NCBI GenBank assembly: GCA_030262855.1
Contig: JAJSZL010000002.1
Coordinates: forward strand, 1,234-65,233
Reading direction: 5' to 3'
Length of the DNA: 64,000 nucleotides
Source of the DNA: Candidatus Desulfofervidaceae bacterium
GTDB taxonomy: Bacteria; Desulfobacterota; Desulfofervidia; Desulfofervidales; Desulfofervidaceae
Shown: positions 11,869-32,168 of the stretch, in pieces
How positions within the stretch are numbered: position 1 is the stretch's first letter
How the letters are laid out: each line of letters begins with the position of its first letter
Notes under the pieces: model-generated
The model's database searches: none
Told to the model about the DNA's origin: nothing
What the model saw: the letters and a program-made list of their open reading frames with translations, nothing else
Program-made: the position numbers and the translations under genes

Positions 11869-13221
11869 ATGATGGGTAGAAACCATAAACATTTCACATT
11901 AAGATTAGTCTTTGTTATCCCCTTCTTCACTACAAGCCTAGTGCTCATTACCAGCCTTTGGTTTATCAGAGCATTTCTTACCGAAGCCGGGTTTAAAATG
12001 ATTTTGTTGAGCACAGGTCTTCTTATAGGCATAGCTTTCATTGCAGGCTTAGCTTTGGCAATGGCTATTTCTCGCCCTCTCAAGACCCTGGAAGACAAGG
12101 CTCAGGCCGTTATTCAAGGGGATTTAGCCCAAGAGATAACCCTTCCTCTTCGGGACGAGCTAGGTAGTCTGGGCCATATTTTTAACGAAATGATTGCTGC
12201 ATTTAATAAATATCTCAAAGAAAGCATGGAAGCAGGAGTAGTGGTGATAAACAATAAAGGATTTATTACCAGTACAAACTATGTTGCCAATCAAATTTTT
12301 AACATTCCTCAAGGAGCAATGGAGGGAAAACATTACACCGAAATATTTGCTCCAGTCCCAGAACTCTTATCCTTAATAAAAACGGCCTTGGCTGAACAAA
12401 GGCCTTTTTCTGTTCAGGAAATGAAAATGTCCAAAGAAGAACTTATCTTGAATGTAAGTGTTTCTGTATTTAAAGAACCACAAAATTTATCCCCAGGATT
12501 AGTGATCTTTTTTAGAGAAGTAAGCCAGCTAAAGGAATTCCAACGCCAACTAGCCCATGCAGACCGTTTGGCTTATCTAGGCACCTTAACCGCCGGCCTG
12601 GCTCACGAGATAAGAAATCCTTTAGCAGGCCTGCAAAGTCTGGTAGAATTGGTAGAAACAAATTTGACCAATCCCCAACGCTGTCAGAGATATCTGGAAG
12701 AAATAAATAAGGTAATTACTAGACTCAATTCGTTGGTAACTGATATGCTCGCTTATGCCCATGCAGATCCAGAGGAGTTCAAACCTATAGAAATCAACCA
12801 GCTGTTAGAAAACACATTGACCATGCTGGATTATGAGTTTAATATAAATGAGTTTGAAATAATAAAAGACTTTTCTTCCCAGCCATTAACAATTATGGGA
12901 GATGAAGCAAAACTCATTCAGGCATTTAATAATGTTATTCGTAATAGTTTACAAGCCATGCCCAGCAGAGGGAGGTTAATTATTGCAACCAGCTCTACAT
13001 CCAAAAAGGTAGTGGTGGAAATCACCAATACCGGTTCATATATTCCTCCAGAAAAGCAGGAAGCAATATTCGTCCCCTTTTATACTACTAAATCTAACGG
13101 TACTGGTTTAGGCTTACCCATTGCCAAACGGATTATAGAAAGTCACGGTGGCAAGATAGAGTTAAAAAGTAGCCCAGAAAAAGTTACTACTTTTATAGTG
13201 GAGTTGCCAATTTCAAAATGA
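11869..13221 (+). CDS. sensor histidine kinase (2 TM-HAMP-PAS-HisKA-HATPase), partner of the downstream sigma-54 activator
   Basis: H-box LAHEIRNPL, N-box NVIRNSLQAM and G-box TGLGLPIAKRIIESHGG. Its stop overlaps the start of the next gene by 4 nt. The track starts at TTG 11833; ATG 11869 is preferred. Confidence 0.85.
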   Translation: MMGRNHKHFTLRLVFVIPFFTTSLVLITSLWFIRAFLTEAGFKMILLSTGLLIGIAFIAGLALAMAISRPLKTLEDKAQAVIQGDLAQEITLPLRDELGSLGHIFNEMIAAFNKYLKESMEAGVVVINNKGFITSTNYVANQIFNIPQGAMEGKHYTEIFAPVPELLSLIKTALAEQRPFSVQEMKMSKEELILNVSVSVFKEPQNLSPGLVIFFREVSQLKEFQRQLAHADRLAYLGTLTAGLAHEIRNPLAGLQSLVELVETNLTNPQRCQRYLEEINKVITRLNSLVTDMLAYAHADPEEFKPIEINQLLENTLTMLDYEFNINEFEIIKDFSSQPLTIMGDEAKLIQAFNNVIRNSLQAMPSRGRLIIATSSTSKKVVVEITNTGSYIPPEKQEAIFVPFYTTKSNGTGLGLPIAKRIIESHGGKIELKSSPEKVTTFIVELPISK

Positions 13222-14582
13222 GTTATCGGTTGTTAATTATTGAAGATGATAGTACCATGCGTTTTGCCCTAAGTGAACTGCTTTCTCAAAGGGGTTATGA
13301 AATAGTAGAGGCCGCAGATGCTGAAGCAGGCCTTAAAGTAGTCCAAAAAGAAGAAATTGATTTAGCCATTGTAGATATCAAACTCCCTGGAATGAGTGGC
13401 CTAGAAGCCATTTCACTAATACAGGAAAAAGACGCTTCTTTACCTGTAATTATCATCACTGCCTACGGAGATAAAAAAAAGGCACTTGAAGCTCTGAAAA
13501 AAGGTGCCTACGACTATTTTACCAAACCCTTCAAAATGGAAGAAATTGAAATTGTCATTAAACGAGCCTTGGAAAAGAGACGACTTGAAAAGGAGATACA
13601 GACGTTGAGGCAGCAGATTGAAGTTGGACAGGAATTTAGAGAAATTATCGGCCAGAGTGAAGCCATGAAAAAGCTTTTCAATCTGGTTAAAAAGGTTTTA
13701 GATACAGATGTAACAGTGTTAATTTCAGGAGAAAGCGGAACTGGAAAGGAGCTCGTGGCCTCTGTGCTTCATCACCATAGCCCACGTAAAGACAAACCCT
13801 TTATAAAAATAAACTGCGCTGCCATTCCCGAAACATTATTAGAAAGTGAGCTCTTTGGATACGAAAAGGGAGCCTTTACAGGTGCAATCTCTTCTAAACC
13901 CGGCAAATTTGAGTTAGCCCATGAAGGAACAATATTTCTAGATGAAATTGGAGAAATGCCTCTTTCTATCCAGGCTAAAATTTTGAGAGTGCTTCAGGAG
14001 AAAGAATTTGAACGGGTTGGAGGAACTAAAACGATAAAGGTTGATGTGAGAATTATTGCCTCTACTAATCGGGATTTATGGGAAGCCGTTCAGAGGAAGA
14101 CCTTTCGTGAAGACCTTTATTTCAGGCTAAATGTAATAAACATCCATCTCCCACCTTTAAGGGAAAGAAAAGAAGACATACCCTTGCTAATTGAACACTT
14201 TATAAGAAAATATAATGTAAAATTTAACAAAAAAGTAACTGGCATCTCCCAAGAAGCGTTGGGCTTGCTTTATCAATATCATTGGCCGGGAAATGTACGT
14301 GAATTAGAAAACTATATTGAAAGGGCTGTTCTTTTAGCTCCTAGGAAATTGATTACTTCTAAGGAGTTACCTTATTATCTCCTAGGAACAACTGAGGAAA
14401 TCAGGGAGAAGAATCTGGATGAAATTATAGAGGGAATAGAAAAAAGGCTAATTATTGACGCCTTGAGGAAAACGCACGGTGTACAAACCCGAGCAGCGGA
14501 GATCTTAGGCATTAGTGAGAGGAGTCTCTGGCATCGGGTGAAGAAATATGGTATTAAGGCAAAAGACTTCAAAAATAGGTGA
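13218..14582 (+). CDS. sigma-54-dependent response regulator (NtrC/PilR-like bacterial enhancer-binding protein)
   Basis: REC domain ([10 protein letters not shown]). AAA+ sigma-54 interaction module with Walker A GESGTGKE and the GAFTGA loop. C-terminal Fis-type HTH ([21 protein letters not shown]). Lies immediately upstream of the pilin gene. Confidence 0.9.
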
Positions 14583-14620
14583 CAAATTTTGTAGTTTGAG
14601 CTACAGAGTTTGTTATTATT
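14582..14620 (+). promoter_or_regulatory. candidate enhancer (UAS) for the pilin sigma-54 promoter
   Basis: ACAAATTTTGTAGTTTGAGCTACAGAGTTTGTTATTATT contains the inverted TGTAG-N6-CTACA. It lies 48-86 nt upstream of the -24 element. It aligns without gaps to 29583-29621 with 28/39 identities, and 14/15 over the first 15 nt. Confidence 0.5.
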
Positions 14621-14667
14621 CAGGTCTGGCAAAATTGAAAAAGCCCTGAAATAAGCTAATTTTTGTT

Positions 14668-14683
14668 TGGTATAAAACTTGCA
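14668..14683 (+). promoter_or_regulatory. sigma-54 (-24/-12) promoter of the pilin gene
   Basis: TGGTATAAAACTTGCA has GG and GC at the exact consensus spacing (TGG-N9-TTGCA). It sits about 40 nt upstream of ATG 14724, downstream of a sigma-54 activator gene. Confidence 0.75.
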
Positions 14684-30982: not shown

Positions 30983-31051
30983 TCGGATCAACAATATGAA
31001 AGTAAAAAGCCCGGTATCCCCCGGACTTTTTTAAACTTCAGGGTGTAAAAA

Positions 31052-32107
31052 ATGATGTCGAGCAGAAACTATAATCTTCGGATTTTCGGCTTGTTTTTAG
31101 GACTAATCTTTCTTTTTCCTCTCTTTGTTCATGCCAGGGTTACGGGCGTGTGTTCAAACTGTCATACCATGCATTATAGTCAAAATGGAGGACAACTTAG
31201 CTCATGGGGTAGCAATGGACCTTATCGGGCCTTATTAGTCAATGACTGTGTGGGCTGTCACACAGGCACAAATACTGGCAGTAATACTACACCTTATGTC
31301 TTTTCTGAAAGTGAACCAACTTATGGAACAAATACCCTTGCAGGTGGAAATTTTTATTGGGTAGCTCATGGGTGTGATGAATGTGGTCACAATGTAACTG
31401 CTATTCCTGGTGTAAATCAAGATAGCAATTTTACTCAAACTCCTGGTTTTGTGAGTGGTAAAACCTGCAGTAGTTGTCATGGTAGTGGCAATATGGTACT
31501 TACTAAATGTGTCTTTTGTCATAATCCAAAACATCATGCAGATGATAGTGGCCCAGTTGTAGGTGATGATGAAGAGGTTAAGTATAGGTTTTTAAGCCTT
31601 GACTTTTTCCACCCATCTACTTTTCAGGAAGGTACATATAATTTTTATGGGGTTGCAGGTATAGAAGATGATGATTGGGAATATACTGTAAGTTCAAGTG
31701 ACCATAATGAATATTGTGGTGCTACTAGTTCAGAGGATTATTCAGATGCTTCTCATTCTATAAGTAGATTTTGTGCTGCCTGTCATTGGGGATTTTATGG
31801 AGAGAATACCGGGCATTGGAAAAGGCATCCATCAGATTATGCCTTACCAAATAGTGGTGAATATGCAAATTATACAACATATAATCCTTTAGCTCCTATA
31901 GCTAGACTTGAAAGCACTTTAACAGGTATGACAGGACCAAGCTCAACTGTAACACCAGGACAGGACCAAGTTTCCTGTCTTTCCTGCCATCGTCCACACG
32001 GCTCACCCTATCCAGATATGTTGCGTTGGGACTATAACACCTGTCAGGCTGGCACAGCTAATTCTAATTGCGGTTGTTTTGTCTGTCATACAAAGAAAGA
32101 TGAATAA
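31052..32107 (+). CDS. secreted OmcS-family multihaem c-type cytochrome paralogue (7 CXXCH)
   Basis: Signal peptide ending VHA. Haem motifs are CSNCH, CVGCH, CSSCH, CVFCH, CAACH, CLSCH and CFVCH. It shares with the upstream paralogue the blocks CHTMHYSQ, GPY.AL...DCVGCH, LAGGNFYWVA, GIEDDDWEY, DHNEY, RHP.D, SCHR.HGS.YPD.LRWDY and CHT.KD. Confidence 0.8.
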   Translation: MMSSRNYNLRIFGLFLGLIFLFPLFVHARVTGVCSNCHTMHYSQNGGQLSSWGSNGPYRALLVNDCVGCHTGTNTGSNTTPYVFSESEPTYGTNTLAGGNFYWVAHGCDECGHNVTAIPGVNQDSNFTQTPGFVSGKTCSSCHGSGNMVLTKCVFCHNPKHHADDSGPVVGDDEEVKYRFLSLDFFHPSTFQEGTYNFYGVAGIEDDDWEYTVSSSDHNEYCGATSSEDYSDASHSISRFCAACHWGFYGENTGHWKRHPSDYALPNSGEYANYTTYNPLAPIARLESTLTGMTGPSSTVTPGQDQVSCLSCHRPHGSPYPDMLRWDYNTCQAGTANSNCGCFVCHTKKDE

Positions 32108-32133
32108 ATGAGGTAAACTTCTCATTTTAAAAA

Positions 32134-32168
32134 GGCGGTAGGCAAAATTTTCATGCCTGCTGCCTTTT
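32134..32168 (+). terminator. rho-independent terminator after the cytochrome operon
   Basis: GGCGGTAGGCA / loop / TGCCTGCTGCC forms an 11-bp stem (2 G-U pairs) followed by TTTT. Confidence 0.6.

Follow-up and report, generated by a model that had tools for sequence, protein, structure and literature searches.

A stretch of 64,000 nucleotides, referred to below as the window, was analysed from contig JAJSZL010000002.1 (NCBI GenBank assembly GCA_030262855.1), part of a metagenome-assembled genome (MAG) of a Candidatus Desulfofervidaceae bacterium. Its 20-kb central block encodes a PilS-like sensor kinase with a PilR-like sigma-54 activator, a pilin operon, the assembly genes of a type IVa pilus with several envelope accessories, and two tandem cytochromes of the OmcS family. 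Predicted activator sites of the same two-box design precede both the pilin operon and the cytochrome operon (Table 1). The encoded cytochrome 1 matches NCBI protein LWW94_00580, from a Candidatus Desulfofervidaceae bacterium MAG, with 100% identity. The family Desulfofervidaceae includes Candidatus Desulfofervidus auxilii (HotSeep-1), a thermophilic sulfate reducer and partner of the anaerobic methanotrophic archaea (ANME) of group ANME-1. Housekeeping genes frame the block, with mltA and glnE on the left and alaS, recA, ligT and cinA on the right, followed by genes of the reverse tricarboxylic acid cycle (rTCA) type. Searches with Pfam and NCBIfam recovered the gene content of an initial annotation, made from the sequence alone, at or within a few bases of where it had been placed, and the Pfam domains confirmed its sensor kinase and sigma-54 response regulator.

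Table 1. Genes and regulatory elements of the block, with positions in the window (ORF, open reading frame; aa, amino acids; L numbers denote related loci, described in the text).
Feature	Positions	Strand	Basis and remarks
PilS-like sensor histidine kinase	11869..13221	+	Pfam HAMP, PAS_4, HisKA, HATPase_c
PilR-like sigma-54 enhancer-binding response regulator (activator)	13218..14582	+	Pfam Response_reg, Sigma54_activat (E = 1e-76), AAA_lid_14, HTH_8
Predicted upstream activator site, pilin operon	14582..14613	+	ACAAATTTTGT-AGTTTGAGCT-ACAGAGTTTGT; core TGTA-N8-TACA
Sigma-54 (-24/-12) promoter, pilin operon	14668..14682	+	TGGTATAAAACTTGC; GG-N10-GC kept
Major pilin	14724..15161	+	class III signal peptide; Pfam N_methyl E = 1e-10
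Minor pilin 1	15172..15576	+	Pfam N_methyl; ATG within ORF 15103-15576; kept in L011-L013
Minor pilin 2	15595..16290	+	Pfam N_methyl; NCBIfam pseudopilin-like N-terminus; kept in L011-L013
Large pilus-associated protein (445-aa ORF)	16241..17578	+	likely start ATG 16292; N-terminal hydrophobic segment
PilC/GspF platform protein	17731..18948	-	Pfam T2SSF E = 2e-57; NCBIfam GspF, PilC below cutoffs
PilB-type assembly ATPase	18948..20645	-	Pfam T2SSE E = 9e-144, MshEN; NCBIfam type_IV_pilB 648.8 bits (cutoff 675.65)
PilQ secretin	20800..22665	-	Pfam Secretin, AMIN, STN; NCBIfam IV_pilus_PilQ (TIGR02515) 320.8 bits, above cutoff 284.35
PilO/GspM-like alignment protein with C-terminal NTF2-like domain	22616..23824	-	Pfam Cds6_C E = 2e-18; orthologue in L009
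PilN-like protein	23793..24365	-	position between PilM and PilO-like gene (as in L009); one transmembrane segment
PilM	24367..25413	-	Pfam PilM_2 E = 1e-24; NCBIfam pilM 111.5 bits (cutoff 133)
ExeA/GspA/MshM-like AAA ATPase	25425..26321	-	Pfam AAA_22; NCBIfam pepcterm_ATPase E = 4e-46, below cutoff
TPR + YkuD L,D-transpeptidase + NTF2-like protein	26443..27876	-	Pfam YkuD, TPR, Cds6_C; orthologues in L008, L009, L010, L094
Periplasmic TPR + NTF2-like protein	27960..29498	-	Pfam TPR, Cds6_C; divergent from cytochromes; PilW/Tgl-like TPR match below cutoff
Predicted upstream activator site, cytochrome operon	29583..29614	+	ACAAATTTTGT-CGTTCAAATG-ACAAAATTTGT; core TGTC-N8-GACA
Sigma-54 promoter, cytochrome operon	29692..29706	+	TGGCACATTTTTTGC; sole perfect -24/-12 consensus in 64 kb
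Sigma-70-like promoter	29774..29802	+	TTGACA-17-TATTTT; downstream of sigma-54 promoter, before cytochrome start codon
OmcS-family cytochrome 1	29843..30982	+	signal peptide; five CXXCH + one CX5CH
Palindromic hairpin with flanking A and T runs	31004..31031		between the two cytochrome genes
OmcS-family cytochrome 2	31052..32107	+	signal peptide; seven CXXCH; paralogue, 47-48% identical to cytochrome 1
Intrinsic terminator after cytochrome 2	32134..32174	+	11-bp stem, then TTTTAATTTT; read from sequence

Sigma-54 promoters and their shared upstream sequence

The upstream sequence common to the two operons lies 86 bp (pilin) and 109 bp (cytochrome) before the -24 element and consists of two 11-mer boxes set 21 bp apart, with ten nucleotides between them. 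The exact 11-mer ACAAATTTTGT occurs in the 64 kb at the pilin and cytochrome sites only. A search with the pattern TTTGT-N10-ACA-N3-TTTGT, one mismatch being allowed, returned four matches in the window, namely the two sites on both strands, where 0.34 would be expected. The pattern contains a TGT-N10-ACA core, a form typical of enhancer-binding proteins.

Relatives were represented by 95 related loci (L001-L095), including 80 metagenomic loci of the cytochrome family (L014-L093), and gene order was read from contigs encoding homologues of window proteins. Loci L001, L008 and L011 belong to assembly GCA_027038965.1, L003 to a Ca. D. auxilii MAG, and L012/L013 and L004/L005 stem from one pair of samples (FORT17, JGI). 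The only loci returned by a scan of genome contigs with the L,D-transpeptidase as query were two distant ones (L006, L007), neither from a Desulfofervidaceae genome. Throughout these 95 loci, the two-box pattern was found only upstream of pilins (L011, L012, L013, L095) and of OmcS-like genes (L001-L005, L015, L049, L071), and a sigma-54 promoter follows it in every relative case read. The pilin promoter has its equivalents in TGGCATAGAAATTGC (L012), TGGTATAAATTTTGC (L011) and TGGCACAAAAATTGC (L095), and the cytochrome promoter is kept in L004, L005, L049 and L071, with one-mismatch forms in L001 and L003. The pilin and cytochrome genes that carry the site lie on different contigs in several lineages, so the site is no by-product of their adjacency. 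This comparative conservation is the strongest result of the analysis. It bears out the proposal of the initial annotation that the two operons have -24/-12 promoters and a common upstream sequence, and the combination provides good cis evidence for a putative common regulon.

The activator gene stands directly upstream of the pilin gene, as do its orthologues in L012/L013 (85% identity), L011 (73%) and L095 (62%), each preceded by an orthologue of the kinase, whose ORF in the window opens with TTG at 11833 and has its ATG at 11869. The order kinase-activator-pilin, the receiver, sigma-54 AAA+ and Fis-type helix-turn-helix domains of the activator, and the -24/-12 promoter all resemble the PilS-PilR systems of Geobacter sulfurreducens, Pseudomonas aeruginosa and Myxococcus xanthus. 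No NCBIfam model identifies the activator as PilR, its top matches being AtoC and NtrC, both below their cutoffs. The Geobacter pilA gene likewise has an RpoN promoter with PilR just upstream (PMC2725144). According to the passage of bioRxiv 10.1101/319194 that cites Juarez 2009, the Geobacter PilR regulon spans at least 44 genes, pilA and several c-type cytochrome genes among them, a reach into cytochrome genes that the present locus would share. Unlike in these systems, the cytochrome target can here be read from a shared, phylogenetically conserved upstream site, and the pilin and cytochrome versions of this site diverge at two symmetric positions.

The cytochrome genes also differ from omcS in standing behind a sigma-54 promoter with a PilR-type upstream site. 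Geobacter omcS carries a GEMM-I riboswitch; no riboswitch of this type was detected in the cytochrome leader of the window, where only noise (E above 5) was returned. On the minus strand, a reading of 29499-29582 revealed no sigma-54 promoter that could serve the divergent TPR gene.

Pilus genes and envelope accessories

The major pilin has the cleavage context KKKKG-FTLIE, cut after the glycine, which is that of a type IVa prepilin. In agreement with the aromatic-rich, Cys-free pilin of the initial annotation, the mature protein of 134 aa contains 14.2% F/Y/W and no cysteine. Its aromatic residues include positions 1, 24, 27, 32, 33, 50, 51 and 57, and its longest aromatic-free run spans 22 residues. 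Aromatic-dense 'e-pilins' are described in bioRxiv 10.1101/668343 as having at least 9.8% aromatics, no aromatic-free gap longer than 22 aa, and aromatic residues at 1, 24, 27, 50/51 and 32/57. The window pilin has all of these sequence features. The HotSeep-1 pilin, when expressed in Geobacter, conferred low conductivity, as stated in the passage of PMC5947290 that cites Walker 2018. Of the solved pilins, those nearest to the N-terminus of the major pilin are chains of Geobacter 'geopilin domain 1' (E = 1e-10), which share its aromatic positions; unlike the split Geobacter PilA-N/C, the window pilin is a single full-length protein. Its tail consists of ten serines (15132-15161) after a Pro/Phe-rich stretch, and this poly-Ser segment may be a glycosylation tail.

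Three minor pilins had been proposed. Two carry the N_methyl domain. They are followed by the 445-aa protein, for which neither Pfam nor NCBIfam gave a family match. Its orthologue always lies 3' of the minor pilins in L011-L013 (438 aa in L012/L013), and this position suggests a tip protein or a PilX/PilY1-like protein. The 445-aa protein contains 11 cysteines clustered beside histidines (GGGCCKHH, CRCKKK, CGCWCHHK), none forming a CXXCH haem motif, and these clusters may bind metal.

Regarding the full assembly set of the initial annotation, PilB, PilC, PilM and PilQ are recognisable by their domains, as in the type IVa machinery (PilBCMNOPQ), and PilN is assigned by position, having no match in Pfam or NCBIfam. 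The T2SSE, T2SSF and Secretin domains give the PilB, PilC and PilQ combination by which a type IVa system is recognised; PilB and PilC score slightly under their equivalog cutoffs, and the GspE and GspF models score similarly. The N-terminus of PilB carries an MshEN motif that binds cyclic di-GMP (c-di-GMP; NCBIfam NF053729, E = 6e-19), so that pilus assembly is probably gated by this nucleotide. The supposed pilO/P fusion has, on its PilO side, a weak T2SSM_b match (PilO/GspM-like, E = 5e-4). The remainder comprises a small GspB/CdsD_C-like stretch (weak T2SSB and CdsD_C) and the NTF2-like domain, and Pfam and NCBIfam reveal no separate PilP in the cluster. Furthermore, the window lacks pilD and pilT, as initially noted: its larger ORFs, assigned by Pfam scans of the 64 kb and by synteny to L010, include neither gene. 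Both may lie in other parts of the genome.

The cluster departs from the type IVa machinery not only in the lack of a separately recognisable PilP and of PilT and PilD in the window, but also through the addition of an ExeA/MshM-like ATPase, an L,D-transpeptidase of Csd6-domain type and TPR proteins that share the NTF2-like domain. The YkuD gene substantiates the peptidoglycan-remodelling accessories of the initial annotation. The Pfam name 'Cds6' is taken here to refer to Helicobacter Csd6, an L,D-carboxypeptidase with an NTF2-like C-terminal domain, and the TPR-YkuD-NTF2 set is presumably the domain set of that protein. The PilO-like protein, the transpeptidase and the TPR protein have this paralogous C-terminal domain (Cds6_C) in common, at 30-35% identity. 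Among the fetched loci, the domain is almost confined to Desulfofervidaceae, the exception being a weak match in the distant L006. In L004/L005, an orthologue of the TPR-NTF2 protein (70% identity) adjoins the cytochrome pair and pil genes are absent. The domain could thus offer a physical link between the cytochrome-adjacent TPR protein and the pil cluster, which is suggestive, not decisive.

In L094 (1-11395), genes for a TPR-NTF2 and a transpeptidase-NTF2 protein follow a Tad (type IVc) pilus cluster with a secretin, TadE, a CpaE-like gene, TadA and TadB/C, and a multihaem cytochrome of 431 aa is encoded about 4 kb past the transpeptidase.

Kinship of the cytochromes with OmcS

Both cytochromes resemble OmcS of Geobacter sulfurreducens (6ef8/6nef) in being secreted, largely coiled proteins of roughly 350-380 aa whose six haem sites follow one another as in OmcS, and as tandem paralogues they recall omcS-omcT. 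They are unlike it in overall sequence (about 22% identity), in the CX5CH variant at haem 3 of cytochrome 1, and in the seventh CXXCH of cytochrome 2. Pairwise search with phmmer against PDB sequences gave no match to OmcS, OmcE or OmcZ for either protein. Profiles of the family, built from 30 and 116 members, returned OmcS as their sole PDB match (E = 1.3e-19 and 2.3e-20, OmcS residues 8-348). The family is large, with at least 3,917 matches of about 380 aa each among 8,000 candidates scored, and includes members from Desulfobacterota, Nitrospirota and Thermosulfidibacteraceae.

The haem sites of cytochrome 1 (C29xxCH, C66xxCH, C166x5CH, C261xxCH, C338xxCH and C371xxCH) are invariant in the 116 sequences, as are the N-terminal C-x2-CHTMH and the CxSCH motif of haem 5. 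H36, the second histidine of CHTMH, aligns with OmcS H16, and C338-S-C-H342 aligns with OmcS C328-H332 (CLSCH), part of CLSCHRAH in OmcS; both motifs are thus kept in the window cytochromes. Wang et al. reportedly found in 2019 that His16 of OmcS ligates haem 5 (the His332 motif) of the neighbouring subunit.

Structure prediction gave a similar picture. An AlphaFold model from 30 sequences had a pLDDT of 58.7 and no Foldseek match, and that from 116 sequences, a single chain modelled without haems, reached a pLDDT of 85.4 and a pTM of 0.85. The latter found OmcS (6ef8_A) as its sole Foldseek match in the PDB, with E = 3.9e-4, probability 0.98 and 405 aligned columns. It is concluded that the cytochromes are, on profile and model evidence, distant members of the OmcS superfamily, as had been proposed, and that they keep the sequence prerequisites for polymerisation. 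Filament formation by them is conceivable.

The hairpin between the two cytochrome genes is a possible partial terminator. In a close relative (L049, 480-1700; L071, 2640-3915), a single gene 80-82% identical to cytochrome 2 lies directly behind a promoter region nearly identical to that of cytochrome 1 in the window, and the L071 gene begins with a cytochrome-1-like signal peptide. This arrangement suggests recombination or deletion between tandem paralogues.

The surroundings of the genes also differ from those of known counterparts. Large beta-barrel genes accompany most OmcS and OmcE regions, according to the part of bioRxiv 10.1101/2025.10.22.684050 that summarises Shen et al. 2025. Beside the window cytochromes, unlike in those regions, no porin-like gene was seen in scans of the window, no direct search with companion-gene sequences having been made, and the neighbours are the TPR-NTF2 gene and alaS. 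OmcS-like cytochromes are reported from syntrophic sulfate reducers, HS1_000170 of HotSeep-1 among them; Murali et al. 2023 assign such genes to oet cassettes 'or elsewhere', and the OmcS and pili passages of that paper draw no link to pil or PilR. The window genes are located outside an oet cassette.

Gene order in relatives and the proposed regulation of the locus

In the closest relatives, the regulator-pilin-PilCBQ block, the L,D-transpeptidase-ExeA-PilMNO-PilQ block and the TPR-cytochrome block are found on different contigs with different neighbours. L012/L013 match the left side of the window (mltA-glnE-kinase-activator-pilins-438 aa-PilC-PilB-PilQ). L009 has PilQ-PilO-like-PilN-PilM-ExeA-L,D-transpeptidase followed by unrelated redox genes, and L004/L005 have LptFG followed by TPR-NTF2 and the two cytochromes. 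Within GCA_027038965.1, the kinase-activator-pilin operon adjoins alaS-recA and is without PilBCQ (L011), the transpeptidase gene adjoins polysaccharide genes on the same contig (L008), and the cytochrome pair is on another contig (L001). In the Ca. D. auxilii MAG, the pair is likewise without pil neighbours (L003). Among the 36 informative metagenomic cytochrome loci, each with at least 5 kb of flank, a pil-type gene is nearby in two only: L048, with the order PilB-kinase-kinase-activator-S8 peptidase-cytochrome, and L069, with an ExeA-like gene. A PilB-like gene within 10 kb was found in one of the 36.

The initial annotation had described a locus that hard-wires both parts, and had itself regarded an adjacency conserved in no relative as fatal to this idea. 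With the blocks on separate contigs, that part of the proposal falls. Contig misassembly was considered and dismissed: each of the junctions is found again in a relative sampled independently (cytochrome-TPR in L004/L005, TPR-L,D-transpeptidase in L094, L,D-transpeptidase-ExeA-PilM in L009, and glnE-kinase-activator-pilins-PilCBQ in L012/L013), so the contig is credible, yet it presents one arrangement among many. In L010 (3902-10862), the transpeptidase gene (83% identical) is the sole gene between alaS and glnE, indicating that the 20-kb block of the window fills a rearrangement-prone gap between conserved housekeeping genes. The adjacency is particular to this lineage and joins blocks that relatives keep apart; what is conserved is the predicted regulatory link.

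The explanation leaned towards here, if by little beyond an even judgement, is that the genes of a type IVa pilus and those of the OmcS-family cytochromes are activated jointly by a PilSR/sigma-54 programme, in the service of syntrophic contact and of electron uptake. The PilS-like kinase would phosphorylate the PilR-like activator, which would bind the two-box site before the pilin operon and before the cytochrome operon. With the activator bound at both, pilus filaments and extracellular cytochromes would be turned on jointly, the most plausible purposes being contact between cells and the direct uptake of electrons from ANME partners. PilB, probably responsive to c-di-GMP, would build the pilus together with PilC, PilM, PilN, the PilO-like protein and PilQ, and the ExeA-like ATPase, the L,D-transpeptidase and the TPR protein would act as envelope accessories. 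The analysis directly shows the gene identities, the homology to OmcS, the conserved promoter and site sequences and the unconserved synteny; the identity of the site-binding protein, the co-expression, the formation of filaments by the cytochromes and any role in electron transfer are what we infer here.

Several observations weigh against this explanation. The structural similarity to OmcS is modest (TM 0.40/0.37, 22% identity), and the pilus-cytochrome adjacency is not conserved. A sigma-70-like promoter ahead of the cytochrome start codon means that expression need not depend on the activator; TTGACA-containing stretches occupy the equivalent place in L004, L003 and L001, and the operon may have two promoters. 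In addition, consensus-like -24/-12 elements occur within 350 nt upstream of 24 of the 79 first-in-row family genes in the 80 metagenomic loci (antisense control, 0/110), and sigma-54 control appears to be general for the cytochrome family, across phyla. A kinase-activator pair is located directly upstream of OmcS-like genes in L026, L042 and L048. Since sigma-54 promoters are common in the family and some members have their own kinase-activator pairs, such a promoter alone does not tie the cytochromes to PilR. Finally, the inner bases of the site are symmetric and specific to each class: pilin sites read TGTA-N8-TACA in 4/4 lineages, and the six distinct cytochrome-site sequences all carry TGTC-N8-GACA, with AACA for GACA in L049/L071. 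Two paralogous activators, or different affinity, could read these forms.

The last observation leads to the doubtful alternative of two regulons, in which the TGTC-N8-GACA site is bound by a paralogous sigma-54 activator encoded elsewhere and the likeness of the sites reflects related DNA-binding domains. The base differences, kept across lineages, would suit this, and other sigma-54 activators exist in these genomes, such as a 334-aa activator beside a multihaem cytochrome gene in L008; the OmcS-like genes of other phyla with a kinase-activator pair of their own point the same way. Both classes nevertheless share the outer 11-mer, the 21-bp spacing of the boxes and the position relative to the promoter, and the exact 11-mer is found nowhere else in the 64 kb. 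No activator gene stands beside the cytochrome pair in four Desulfofervidaceae contexts, and in L001, L003 and L004 no dedicated activator gene flanks it.

It is also quite improbable that the adjacency is incidental, with the cytochromes being ordinary monomeric carriers of the outer surface or periplasm, neither nanowires nor tied to the pilus. Such a view could draw on the free shuffling of the blocks in relatives (as with the lone transpeptidase gene of L010), on a fold similarity to OmcS that is only modest, and on the seven haem motifs of cytochrome 2, and filament formation cannot be read from sequence. It is countered by the conservation of the upstream site at unlinked genes of several lineages and by the invariance, in 116 sequences, of the OmcS His16 equivalent and its target motif. 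Haem-stained intercellular filaments have moreover been imaged in HotSeep-1 consortia (PMC5947290).

A further possibility, an unlikely one but the most credible of the alternatives, extends co-activation by PilSR and does not exclude it. The pilus machine might itself export or assemble the cytochromes, with the pilin forming a short pseudopilus, PilQ providing the exit through the outer membrane and the OmcS-like proteins polymerising outside, and the NTF2-domain proteins (PilO-like, transpeptidase and TPR) coupling cytochrome subunits to the machine. In the window genome, the cytochrome operon abuts the assembly genes, PilT is not present in the 64 kb, and no porin-like gene flanks the cytochromes. 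The upstream site is common to both promoters, and the TPR-NTF2 protein stays by the cytochromes in L004/L005, yet its domain is common to the PilO-like protein and the transpeptidase. A comparable pseudopilus role was put forward for the PilA-N/C pili of Geobacter by Gu et al. 2021, as cited in passages of PMC9539880 and bioRxiv 10.1101/2025.10.22.684050. On the other side, the unconserved adjacency makes the contiguous locus weak evidence for mechanical coupling, and the rarity of PilB-like genes near family members counts against it as well. The pairing of TPR-NTF2 and transpeptidase-NTF2 genes beside the Tad cluster of L094 suggests general envelope accessories that are not cytochrome-specific, and the pilin, being full length and having both a globular part and a poly-Ser tail, matches what a genuine surface pilus would need. 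The field, as portrayed through Shen et al. 2025 in the relevant passage of bioRxiv 10.1101/2025.10.22.684050, now also favours a porin-like OmcS pathway. The compound claim, that in Desulfofervidaceae one PilS/PilR pair co-activates both gene sets and the pilus machine, with its NTF2-domain accessory proteins, exports and assembles cytochrome filaments that wire the bacterium to ANME archaea, is a doubtful conjecture.

Co-activation by the PilSR programme fits what has been reported for the lineage. In methane-oxidising consortia of HotSeep-1, one pilA and OmcS-like cytochromes are highly expressed, and the space between the cells is filled with haem-stained filaments (PMC5947290, PMC9539880, PMC10553843). 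With this expression and the Geobacter PilR regulon published, the theme is already known, and the novelty claimed for the module in the initial annotation is reduced to two elements: a directly readable, conserved, predicted shared activator site in a lineage of ANME partners, and a single genome with all the parts side by side in one locus. Whether OmcS is exported by pili or by a porin-like machine is debated, and the regulation and export of cytochrome nanowires are unsettled, and the models being weighed include a type IV pilus acting as pseudopilus as well as a porin-like pathway (bioRxiv 10.1101/2025.10.22.684050). What carries the current in methane-oxidising consortia, be it pili, cytochromes or the two together, is a live question. 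The present finding suggests that the pilus and cytochrome structures are deployed as a single programme. For cloning, the contiguous locus makes a convenient unit, and if the pilus machine did export the cytochromes, it would be a natural minimal parts list for reconstituting pilus-dependent secretion of cytochrome nanowires.

Beyond the block, a Peripla_BP_6 binding protein and a hybrid PAS kinase-receiver are encoded at 38709-41961, 6.6 kb from the window cytochromes. The same pair lies directly 3' of the cytochrome pair in GCA_027038965.1 (L001 12400-15694), and may either be left over from an older synteny or supply a second sensory input. A tRNA-Lys(CTT) gene (42037-42112) is followed by a low-GC stretch to 50600 (33-37%, against about 40-45% elsewhere), in which a SIR2_2-domain protein (47099-48259) is encoded alongside ORFs that have no match in Pfam. 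The region 42037-50600 looks like an integrated island, possibly for defence.

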